A DNA stretch of 64,000 bases from IMG/VR virus record IMGVR_UViG_3300049988_000245, positions 160,001-224,000 of that record. One strand, written 5' to 3'. The notes below the pieces were generated by a model. It saw nothing but the letters and a program-made list of their open reading frames with translations, was not told where the DNA came from and did no database searches. This stretch comes from a virus (Duplodnaviria > Caudoviricetes). This document shows positions 13,965 through 17,120 of the stretch, piece by piece (the stretch's first letter is position 1; every line of letters begins with the position of its first letter). Position numbers and translations under genes: made by a program.

Positions 13965-14561
13965 ATGGCCCTCGTTCCTATGGTGCTTGAACAGGACGGT
14001 CGTTCGGAGCGCTCTTTCGATCTTTTCAGCAGGATGCTGCGAGACCGGATCATCTTCGTGACCGGCGAAGTCGAAGACAACATGGCGAATCTCATCGCCG
14101 CCCAGATTCTCTTCCTTGAGAGCGTCGATCCGGACAAGGATATCTCCCTGTACATCAACTCGCCGGGTGGCTCGGTCACAGCGGGTATGGCGATCTTCGA
14201 TGCGATGAATTTCGTGAAGTGCGACATCGCAACGATCGTCATGGGTCAGGCGTGCTCGATGGGCGCGTTCCTGCTCTCCGCCGGGACCAAGGGGAAGCGC
14301 GTTGCCTTGGCGAACTCCCGCATCATGATTCACCAGCCGTCCTCCGGCATGGGCCGGTCCACCGTGACGGACATGGAGATTCAGCTTGCGGAAGTCCTCA
14401 AGATGAAGCGCTCCCTCACCCAGCATCTCGCCGACCATTGCGGGAAGACGTACAAGGAAATGTACGACCTCTGCGAGCGCGACCACTTCATGGATGCGGA
14501 AGAGACCATGGCTCTGGGTCTGGTCGATCGGGTCGTGAAGAATCGTTCGGAAATCGTCTGA
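13965..14561 (+). CDS. clpP: ATP-dependent Clp protease proteolytic subunit
   Basis: [40 protein letters not shown] (catalytic Ser), IMIHQP, ERDHFM. Confidence 0.97.
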
Positions 14562-15188: not shown

Positions 15189-15589
15189 TCTGGGCGCTGG
15201 CCGTCCTGTTCACCCTGGTGCTGATCCAGCACAAGCATCTGGTGATCGATTGGATATGGCAACCGAAGTTCGAATGGTCGAACAAGCACGAGTACGGGCA
15301 CCTCGGTGGGGTTTGCCACGCGGGTAAGAACGCGCTCGGGACCGGGCTGTGCCTGTTTGCGGGAATGCCGGGGGTGACGATTGGATTCGCGTTGTGGCTG
15401 ACATTCTTGGACTTTGTGATTCACTATCACATCGACTGGTCCAAGATGAATCTGAATCGTTACTGGAATCTGGATGCTTCGAAGCCGCAATTCTGGTGGC
15501 TGACTGGATTTGACCAGCATCTCCACCAGATGACCTACTTGGGTCTAGTATGGTACGCGTTGATCGTGGGGTTCGGTAGGATCGGGTAA
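15182..15589 (+). CDS. DUF3307-like membrane protein
   Basis: QHKHLVIDW.WQ....NK..YGH.GG..HA..IHYHIDWSK..FWWLTGFDQHLHQ. Confidence 0.75.
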   Translation: MLIWALAVLFTLVLIQHKHLVIDWIWQPKFEWSNKHEYGHLGGVCHAGKNALGTGLCLFAGMPGVTIGFALWLTFLDFVIHYHIDWSKMNLNRYWNLDASKPQFWWLTGFDQHLHQMTYLGLVWYALIVGFGRIG

Positions 15590-15999
15590 TGGCACAGACA
15601 CCGTCTGGGATTTTTCAGCTTGAACTGAATACGTTCGAGACCAAGATGTTTGATCTTGGTAGGATGTTCTCGGAAAATGTTGGTCAGGTTAAGATCGACT
15701 TCTTTAAAAAGAAGATCACCGTCAACGTAATGGATGACGCCGAGGGGGCGGTTTTTAAGTTCCTCTCGAAGATTGCCGAAGATAAGGAGCGCGTCCTTCG
15801 GATCAAATACGGTGATCCAGTCGGATACACACTGGACTTTACCGGCACCGAAGTGGACTCCCACACATTCGATATGGGTGATGCGTACGAGGTCAAGAAC
15901 GCGCTTCTTGCCATCTCGACGCTCGCTGGCATGACCTATAACCAGACGCCGATGCACCACAAGATCGTGTTCTCGTACAAGGACAAGATTGCCAAATGA
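15589..15999 (+). CDS. Hypothetical beta-rich protein, possibly tail-tube-like fold
   Basis: TAATG overlap; alternating beta-strand pattern similar to 32985-33383. Confidence 0.55.
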   Translation: MAQTPSGIFQLELNTFETKMFDLGRMFSENVGQVKIDFFKKKITVNVMDDAEGAVFKFLSKIAEDKERVLRIKYGDPVGYTLDFTGTEVDSHTFDMGDAYEVKNALLAISTLAGMTYNQTPMHHKIVFSYKDKIAK

Positions 16000-16457
16000 G
16001 CACGGATTTCACCGCCATCGCCAAGGTGATGATCCCGAAAATTCGTCGGACCATGCCGTCGATCATCGCCTCAGAAATCATTGGGGTGTCTCCGATGACC
16101 GGACCGACCGCGAGCATCTACGCGCTGCGCGCCCGATACAGCGCGTTCACGGACGGCTGCTCCGGGATCGATTGCGGTTTCGGTCCGGACATGTCGCCCA
16201 CTTATGGGGTCATCTACGCAACCTGTGTGGACTTCCCGATGAACCATCCACTGCGGAATGATCCGCAAGCCGTGGTGACCTGGGCGCTTCAGAATTGCCG
16301 GAAGTCGTTCACCTACTCGACCGTGGTGATCGGTACGACAATGAATCCTCCGGAGACGGACGAGCGAATCATGAAGATTCGACCTGCCAACCGAGTATGG
16401 CGCTGGACATTCGCAGACGAGGATGATGCTTTCGGGTTCAAGGTTCGTTGGATGTAA
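15996..16457 (+). CDS. Fusion: T4 gp23 major-capsid-like segment plus FKxRW-family domain
   Basis: MIPKIRRTMPSIIASEIIGVSPMTGPTASIYALRARY matches the conserved gp23 segment. Ends WTFADEDDAFGFKVRWM. Confidence 0.75.
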   Translation: MSTDFTAIAKVMIPKIRRTMPSIIASEIIGVSPMTGPTASIYALRARYSAFTDGCSGIDCGFGPDMSPTYGVIYATCVDFPMNHPLRNDPQAVVTWALQNCRKSFTYSTVVIGTTMNPPETDERIMKIRPANRVWRWTFADEDDAFGFKVRWM

Positions 16458-16458
16458 G

Positions 16459-16719
16459 ATGAAATCGCGCGATTATAGTGTAGTCATAGAGGGAGATTAC
16501 GGAAACAACCATCGGTATGGATTCGACCTATACTTCAGCACCAATTGGGGCTACCCAATGTACGCGTGGTGTGAAGAACAGTTTGGCCCGCCTTATGACT
16601 CGACTACCAATCCCGATGGCGTATGGTCGCGCTTTCATCAGAGCGGTTGTATTCACTATGTACAGGTTCGATTTGAGCAAGTCGAATACGCCATCGCGTT
16701 CAAAATGCGTTTTCTTTGA
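16459..16719 (+). CDS. FKxRW-family paralogue
   Basis: AWCEEQFGP..W..VRFEQVEYAIAFKMRFL. Confidence 0.75.
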   Translation: MKSRDYSVVIEGDYGNNHRYGFDLYFSTNWGYPMYAWCEEQFGPPYDSTTNPDGVWSRFHQSGCIHYVQVRFEQVEYAIAFKMRFL

Positions 16720-16793: not shown

Positions 16794-17120
16794 ATGGTAG
16801 TCACGACCTTCCAGGCAGGACTCAAGGACCCCCAGCCCTACGTGGTGCGGATGAATCTGTACCGGGCGGGATATGACGACGTGCGAGGCACCCTGCTTGC
16901 GCGCTACGTCGAGTTTTGGTGTCAGAAGAACTGCATCGGCGAATGGCACATCGACCAGACCGCCCACCTGTTGACGGTTTCGTTCTCAGCCACGGTCGAT
17001 ACCGTACTGTTCATGATCTCCGAGGAATACACCTACTTCGTGCCATCGGCGACCACTCGCCCACACGCGGCGTTCGAGGGTCTTCCGGCGTTCACATTGG
17101 GATACACGATTGTGCTTTAG
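16794..17120 (+). CDS. Hypothetical protein, divergent FKxRW-like member
   Basis: FWCQKNCIGEW..VSFSATVDTVLF. Confidence 0.6.
   Translation: MVVTTFQAGLKDPQPYVVRMNLYRAGYDDVRGTLLARYVEFWCQKNCIGEWHIDQTAHLLTVSFSATVDTVLFMISEEYTYFVPSATTRPHAAFEGLPAFTLGYTIVL

Follow-up and report, generated by a model that had tools for sequence, protein, structure and literature searches.

Within gp23, the capsid protein of phage T4, conservation is highest in the Gol stretch (PMC3014915). According to that review, a 29-residue Gol peptide binds domains II–III of EF-Tu, with a preference for the GDP form, and this binding leads the Lit protease of prophage e14 to cleave EF-Tu. The review also carries the authors' proposal that gp23 binds EF-Tu in all T4-like phages; EF-Tu binding is documented for T4 and E. 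coli only. Likewise, the gp23 N terminus sends fusion proteins to GroEL (Snyder and Tarkowski 2005, as cited in PMC3012670). Because the Gol peptide binds EF-Tu and the gp23 N terminus retargets fusions, the stretch acts autonomously and on foreign proteins.

The stretch has a second context, the T4 head itself. In the prohead, gp23 residues 66–105 are disordered and L106 points inward; the region is thought to touch the scaffold and later becomes the external N-arm (PMC9546572). Residues 106–131 are ordered in T4 head structures, and the stretch includes the portal contact M98 as well as A94V and G97S, mutations that affect capsid length (PMC9546572). The capsid protein is also a trigger of defence systems, including Lit (PMC3014915), CapRel, Avs7, Avs8 and Avs10, and EF-Tu is involved in the Lit and Avs7 cases. 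Sensors of the Avs type read folds, not 45-residue peptides (2026 Avs7 preprint).

Here we describe P0001, a small phage protein that carries this capsid stretch outside any capsid protein. The exclusion system formed by T4 Gol, e14 Lit and EF-Tu uses the same stretch, and the T4 peptide acts by itself, outside the capsid protein, by binding a host protein. In T4, however, Gol is part of the capsid protein and has been freed from it only in laboratory constructs, whereas P0001 is the product of a natural, separate gene in which the stretch is fused to an unrelated domain. Unlike T4, relatives of P0001 hold a Gol mini-gene beside the capsid gene. GroEL targeting by gp23 offers a second likeness, since an N-terminal capsid piece serves there as a transferable tag, as it would in P0001, and some P0001 relatives add the propeptide helix; the gp23 tag is an engineered fusion, whereas P0001 is a natural gene. 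Finally, the capsid-targeting sequences of T4 internal proteins and Alt are short terminal peptides that steer unrelated proteins to a head-assembly partner, an arrangement similar to that of P0001. However, they are ∼10 residues long, do not resemble gp23 in sequence and are cut at L/I-x-E, whereas the P0001 tag comprises 45 residues from the capsid protein. No [LIV]-x-E prohead-protease word occurs in or just after the P0001 motif, although the protease of this phage may differ in specificity.

A capsid-derived segment on a small carrier domain

The source record is a 265,895-bp IMG/VR virus, 57% complete by CheckV. Bases 160001–224000 of this record form the window, the whole 64,000-nucleotide stretch of DNA that was analysed. 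The source virus is an uncultured giant leaf/silage phage: its DNA is found in leaf and silage metagenomes from several studies, and megablast against cultured phages returned no match. No RNA datasets are listed among the public runs that contain this DNA. The gene and its parts, in window coordinates, are:

15996..16457 (stop included), + strand: P0001 gene, encoding a 153-aa chimeric protein (ORF listing, translation)
16011..16151, + strand: residues 6–52, detached gp23 N-terminal Gol stretch (Pfam, PDB and hhalign matches)
16152..16202, + strand: residues 53–69, Cys-containing linker GC..(.)C (conserved in the closest subfamily; low-confidence model)
16203..16454, + strand: residues 70–153, carrier domain of the ...DAFxFKMRW family (family HMM, hhalign, AF2)

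The initial annotation proposed a chimera of a capsid segment and an FKxRW-family domain, and both halves are borne out by profile methods. The match to the gp23 HMM is significant: Pfam PF07068 (Gp23) aligns to P0001 residues 8–50 with an E-value of 3.5e-12 and 46.9 bits, above the gathering cut-off of 24.4 bits, and covers profile positions 4–46 of 376 only. PHROG 138 ('major head protein') matches at E 2.3e-12, and a search of NCBIfam found no match. The solved T4 gp23 chains 5vf3 and 7vs5 match at E 1e-5, aligning P0001 residues 6–52 with gp23 residues 89–135, and P0001 is thus homologous in sequence to the Gol region of gp23. In hhalign, a profile of 19 homologues matches a profile of 11 capsid proteins at 99.4% (E 3e-21, 55% consensus identity), with the alignment confined to P0001 residues 3–51. 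P0001 shares 12 of 29 residues with the T4 Gol 29-mer, which we take to be gp23 residues 94–122. The gp23 origin given in the initial annotation therefore stands, but its limits of about residues 10–50 give way to residues 6–52 followed by a linker (∼53–69), and the segment had not been recognized as the Gol, or EF-Tu-binding, region.

The segment and the carrier domain differ sharply in their predicted structure. AF2 models residues 1–68 with low confidence and does not pack them on the carrier domain; pLDDT is 50–70 over the Gol segment and <50 at residues 57–68. To judge from this model, the Gol module (residues 6–52) probably lacks a fixed fold of its own. In the linker, C55 is invariant in the closest subfamily (alignment A2). 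Most members of this subfamily also have a second Cys 3–5 residues after C55, and most keep the His of a VDFP..H sequence (both within window positions 16152–16250). These Cys and His residues, located between the Gol tag and the carrier domain, may form a small metal site.

The carrier domain belongs to a large paralogue family. An HMM of 62 paralogues, built with P0001 left out, matches P0001 residues 83–153 (E 1e-6), and the C-terminal part of the P0001 subfamily matches the family profile in hhalign at 98.1% (E 1e-13). The match includes the C-terminal strand-helix of the family profile, F.F..D.DAF.FK.RW; P0001 itself ends ...DDAFGFKVRWM. Approximately 80 ORFs of the record end in ...DAFxFKMRW/G/C, often chained by stop/start overlap, and the family HMM retrieves 91 ORFs at E ≤1e-3. 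P0001 is the only one of them that bears a capsid segment. The segment is thus so far uninformative about the role of the ∼90-copy family, about which the initial annotation had taken it as a hint. Lineage-specific expansions of small proteins are likewise seen in giant phages, and the P0001 carrier is one of ∼80–90 diverged paralogues in a single genome. Unlike such expansions, the P0001 family has a capsid peptide grafted on one member, and P0001-type proteins place tag and carrier in either order in different phages.

AF2 predicts a beta-alpha-beta-beta-alpha fold for P0001 residues 70–153 (pLDDT 86–96, with the element order seen at 76–152). The same order is predicted for residues 20–91 of a relative with its motif at the other end (P0033), in which the Gol motif is again unpacked and of low confidence. 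Foldseek comparison of the P0001 model with the PDB gave nothing at E ≤1e-3. A wide VIA-align search peaked at Z 5.0 with generic sandwiches of the ferredoxin-like or ACT/KH-like kind, and an Atlas search gave generic ferredoxin-like folds at TM ∼0.5. P0001 is not an HK97 capsid protein, having 153 aa vs 380–520 aa and this different fold. In hhalign, residues 53–153 score 0.17% and the paralogue family 0.13% against capsid proteins, which also rules out a derivation of the whole of P0001, or of its family, from the capsid N-arm, E-loop and spine helix. BLAST prolongs the P0001 alignment over capsid residues 53–178 in five subfamily members; the 0.17% in the profile comparison shows this extension to be spurious.

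Genomic neighbourhood and capsid genes

The P0001 gene sits among non-structural genes, which include ClpP and NADAR genes; the orthologous locus adds RNA ligase and SIR2. Its ATG overlaps the stop codon of an upstream gene (ATGA), and the next paralogue starts two bases past its own stop. The annotated neighbours are:

13965-14561, + strand: ClpP-type protease gene (Pfam E 1.6e-73)
15589..15999, + strand: upstream 136-aa gene, translationally coupled through the ATGA overlap and conserved in two of three relatives' loci
16459..16719, + strand: downstream 86-aa paralogue without capsid segment (family HMM E 2e-11), ending ...AIAFKMRFL
16794..17120, + strand: 108-aa gene, conserved and lying downstream of the orthologue at each of the three related loci (blastp)

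The 136-aa protein has no match in Pfam, PHROG or NCBIfam. The ClpP gene lies upstream of the Gol gene on the same strand, apparently in one tightly packed operon. The 108-aa gene has no family match and is 95, 84 and 70% identical in the three related loci, exceeding the conservation of P0001 itself. Near the P0001 gene, the late-promoter word TATAAATA is absent and sigma-70-like sites occur at chance level.

The initial annotation placed P0001 far from any capsid gene, which understates the case. The whole 265,895-bp record (57% complete) contains no full capsid gene, only short capsid-fragment ORFs ∼65 kb from P0001. Three consecutive short ORFs (301, 209 and 182 aa) at C1:109191-111250 of the record, ∼49–51 kb before the window, encode Tat-like N-termini and pieces of the capsid protein. 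The 209- and 182-aa mini-capsid proteins keep the E-loop strand, the spine helix and the C-terminal P-domain strands, and lack the Gol stretch and the A domain.

Related phages show how the Gol gene and the capsid gene coexist. In the cultured Sinorhizobium phage Phosso (469 kb), the capsid protein has 408 aa (E 7e-82); a separate Gol ORF and a C-terminal capsid fragment are present once each. Two complete IMG/VR genomes with terminal repeats (480 and 462 kb) each contain a full capsid gene, one Gol mini-gene and a capsid fragment, the fragment being a weak match (E 0.04) in the 462-kb genome. The pattern of capsid gene, Gol mini-gene and fragment also recurs in a 277-kb genome fragment. The Gol gene thus comes on top of the capsid gene and does not replace it. 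Because complete relatives have a full capsid gene alongside one mini-gene, P0001 cannot be a capsid gene that has split or is decaying; the intact capsid genes likewise rule out an exon. The Phosso Gol ORF lies at approximately PV764938.1:182175-182855 (L018:4176-4856). CDS 276 is annotated there from 182439, which cuts off the motif; the true protein is probably ∼195–226 aa long, with the Gol motif upstream in the same open frame. Of 19 records scanned from a DNA-pattern search, 11 contain no Gp23 match, so that their pattern matches are probably due to chance.

Relatives and shuffling of the motif

An exhaustive phmmer search retrieved 396 proteins at E ≤1e-3, at least 13 of which have the P0001 architecture at 35–51% identity; a search for related loci with P0001 alone yielded two short contigs only. 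Capsid genes cut short by a contig end, which leave just an N-terminal piece, were set apart from true short proteins by their coverage against full capsid proteins. The architecture is old and under purifying selection. P0002, an orthologue encoded on the syntenic contig L009, is 75% identical to P0001; comparison of the two genes gives a dN/dS of 0.22 for the full length and 0.19 for the motif, at a dS of 0.63. Together with the relatives of the same architecture, this answers in the affirmative the question, raised by the initial annotation, of whether orthologues keep the segment under purifying selection. Alignments of 25 same-architecture proteins show the strongest conservation in the motif, where P33 and M34 never vary and P21, A25, V31 and P37 hardly do.

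The motif is not tied to one position. It precedes the family domain in 25 proteins (type A, including P0001) and follows either this or a different domain in ∼25 (type B). Type B proteins, such as the 173- and 159-aa proteins of genomes G004 and G005, run from the family domain through the motif to an acidic or Ser-rich tail. In minis of 65–100 aa the motif stands nearly alone. One metagenomic protein, P0142 (84 aa), joins a twin-arginine-type leader (MIRRKFFK followed by a hydrophobic run) directly to the Gol motif. Its sequence suggests that some Gol minis may be exported, or else that this putative leader has another role.

Eight relatives (P0006, P0048, P0073, P0086, P0087, P0105, P0116 and P0141) carry the capsid propeptide helix, ..LLENTR..AL, behind the Gol motif. 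An HMM of the helix matches the eight tails at E 5e-9 to 7e-3; in background ORFs totalling 209,112 residues it scores no better than E 0.67. In real capsid proteins the helix lies ∼35 residues before the motif, the reverse of the order in these minis. N-terminal elements of the capsid protein have thus been joined in a non-native order, which is the behaviour of short binding peptides.

Position by position, the motif is conserved in the same way in 31 capsid proteins, 25 type A proteins and 25 type B proteins. The small motif-bearing proteins lack the rest of the HK97 fold. In contrast, gp24, the vertex paralogue of T4, shares fold and lattice with gp23 and has not kept the hallmark residues RR..P, GVQPM and GP. 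Since gp24 lost the hallmarks and minis without the fold keep them, the HK97 fold itself is not the constraint on the stretch. To judge from these comparisons, the constraint would most simply be a partner that recognizes the stretch in peptide form.

The wording of the motif also separates the small proteins from their resident capsid genes. Small proteins often read GVSPMTGPT..IFALR, vs GVQPMTGPVAQIHTLR in the capsid proteins of this clade, and the minis are therefore not recent copies of the resident capsid gene. In a tree of 44 motif columns the capsid copies cluster, with 4 changes vs 24.9 in shuffles; one origin and many origins are not separable in this tree. On the evidence of sequence, the Gol mini-proteins are a widespread class under selection.

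Candidate partners of the segment

We tentatively favour a reading of residues 6–52 as a portable docking peptide that would act in trans on a host translation or folding factor. The peptide would bind the same partner as the stretch does in nascent or unassembled capsid protein. Once bound, it would either tether the carrier domain (residues ∼70–153) to that partner or compete with the capsid protein. We infer both the binding in trans and the identity of the partner, which would be a host factor conserved universally. EF-Tu comes first among the candidates, since a free T4 peptide from the stretch binds it experimentally. GroEL, together with a phage co-chaperonin, is the second because the gp23 N terminus is reported to direct fusions to GroEL; Phosso encodes a Cpn10 co-chaperonin. 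The position-independence of the motif, the flexible models and the non-structural neighbourhoods (ClpP and NADAR; RNA ligase and SIR2) all favour a conserved host factor. The initial annotation had offered three roles, namely a capsid-mimic decoy, an assembly modulator and a tag delivering the family domain to procapsids or chaperones. The tag fits best, given a motif found at either end of its carriers, the kept capsid positions and the unpacked model. Other observations sit less easily with host-factor docking. EF-Tu is highly abundant, which makes stoichiometric effects on it unlikely, and the Tat-type leader of P0142 is hard to square with a cytoplasmic partner. Moreover, gp23 residues 66–105 probably face the scaffold in T4, which offers a possible partner within the phage itself (PMC9546572).

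Such an internal partner is the premise of the main, though doubtful, alternative, in which the motif would mimic the inward N-terminal region of the capsid protein and bind the scaffolding core, the portal or capsid subunits of the prohead. The carrier could then be loaded as prohead cargo, in the manner of a capsid-targeting sequence, or could modulate assembly or head size. The disorder of gp23 66–105 in T4 proheads, the inward L106 and the likely scaffold contact of the region agree with this proposal, as do the positions of A94V, G97S and M98 within the stretch (PMC9546572). The eight relatives with LLENTR after the motif also speak for it, although the propeptide helix fits prohead targeting as well as chaperonin targeting. 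However, T4 gp24 enters the same prohead without the hallmark residues. Scaffold proteins also change quickly in evolution, yet phages that are very distant from one another share a nearly invariant motif. In addition, the sequence beside the P0001 motif offers no [LIV]-x-E site, and the gene lies in non-structural surroundings with no TATAAATA nearby.

The capsid protein is also a frequent trigger of immunity, and P0001 might instead be a decoy or antagonist: a free capsid epitope, made before the capsid protein, that would occupy or blind capsid sensors, possibly those that use EF-Tu. Lit, CapRel, Avs7, Avs8 and Avs10 are all triggered in this way, Lit and Avs7 with the involvement of EF-Tu, and the genome holds other detached capsid fragments in addition to a Gol gene in a non-structural region. 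We nonetheless consider a decoy unlikely. In Lit, the only known case for this stretch, the free peptide activates the defence rather than blocking it (PMC3014915). Avs-type sensors recognize folds rather than 45-residue peptides, and near-universal conservation at every motif position suits one universal partner better than a patchy and diverse set of sensors.

A broader version of host-factor docking would treat all of the detached capsid pieces (Gol, propeptide helix and P-domain minis, some of them Tat-led) as a toolkit that giant T4-like phages mount on small carriers, with the Gol members docking on the site that EF-Tu offers to the capsid protein. We think this improbable as a whole. 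If true, EF-Tu binding would be among the ancient and conserved functions of T4-type capsid proteins, one that the phage would use for influencing translation or folding, or for blinding defences that, like Lit and Avs7, respond to capsid protein together with EF-Tu.

Highly improbable, in our view, is trans-complementation, in which the motif would supply the missing N-terminal strand of the Tat-leader mini-capsid proteins (C1:110181-111250). The predicted product would be a two-chain mini P-domain, perhaps exported by Tat 'hitch-hiking'. Capsid profiles match these mini-proteins at 88–94% probability, with the N-terminal stretch missing. The P0001 genome, Phosso, G003, G004 (where the fragment hit is weak, E 0.04) and G005 each combine a Gol mini-gene with capsid fragments, and the foreign relative P0142 joins a Tat-type leader to the motif. 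However, the capsid regions covered by the fragments vary from relative to relative, leaving no constant partner, and the co-occurrence comes from one clade only, with the genes 65 kb apart. A functionless remnant, in which part of a duplicated or split capsid gene is decaying after chance fusion to a family member, could explain the missing full capsid gene and the BLAST alignment that runs to capsid residue 178, but it is barely credible given a dN/dS of 0.22, an architecture kept down to 35% identity with the motif as its best-conserved part, intact capsid genes in complete relatives and a BLAST extension that profile comparison marks as spurious.

These proteins bear on a question that dates from the Lit work: why is Gol the most conserved part of T4-type capsid proteins? 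What use the binding of capsid protein to EF-Tu is to the phage is raised again by the 2026 Avs7 preprint. Natural proteins that lack the capsid fold and keep the same conserved positions show that the constraint is more than capsid architecture. As small, soluble and easily mutated baits, Gol mini-proteins could reveal what the stretch binds, and the Sinorhizobium phage Phosso provides a cultured carrier. An EF-Tu or chaperonin partner would define a new phage route to the host translation and folding machinery; a prohead partner would define a new cargo-loading tag, usable in engineering.

The literature searched contains no paper that describes natural stand-alone proteins of the Gol segment, and the mini-protein class is apparently undescribed. 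New elements are the ∼90-copy carrier family used in both gene orders, the permuted propeptide helix, the contrast with gp24 and the cultured carrier. In the ESM Atlas, 87 viral 'Gp23 domain-containing' proteins form an unnamed cluster, the representative of which is 123 aa long.
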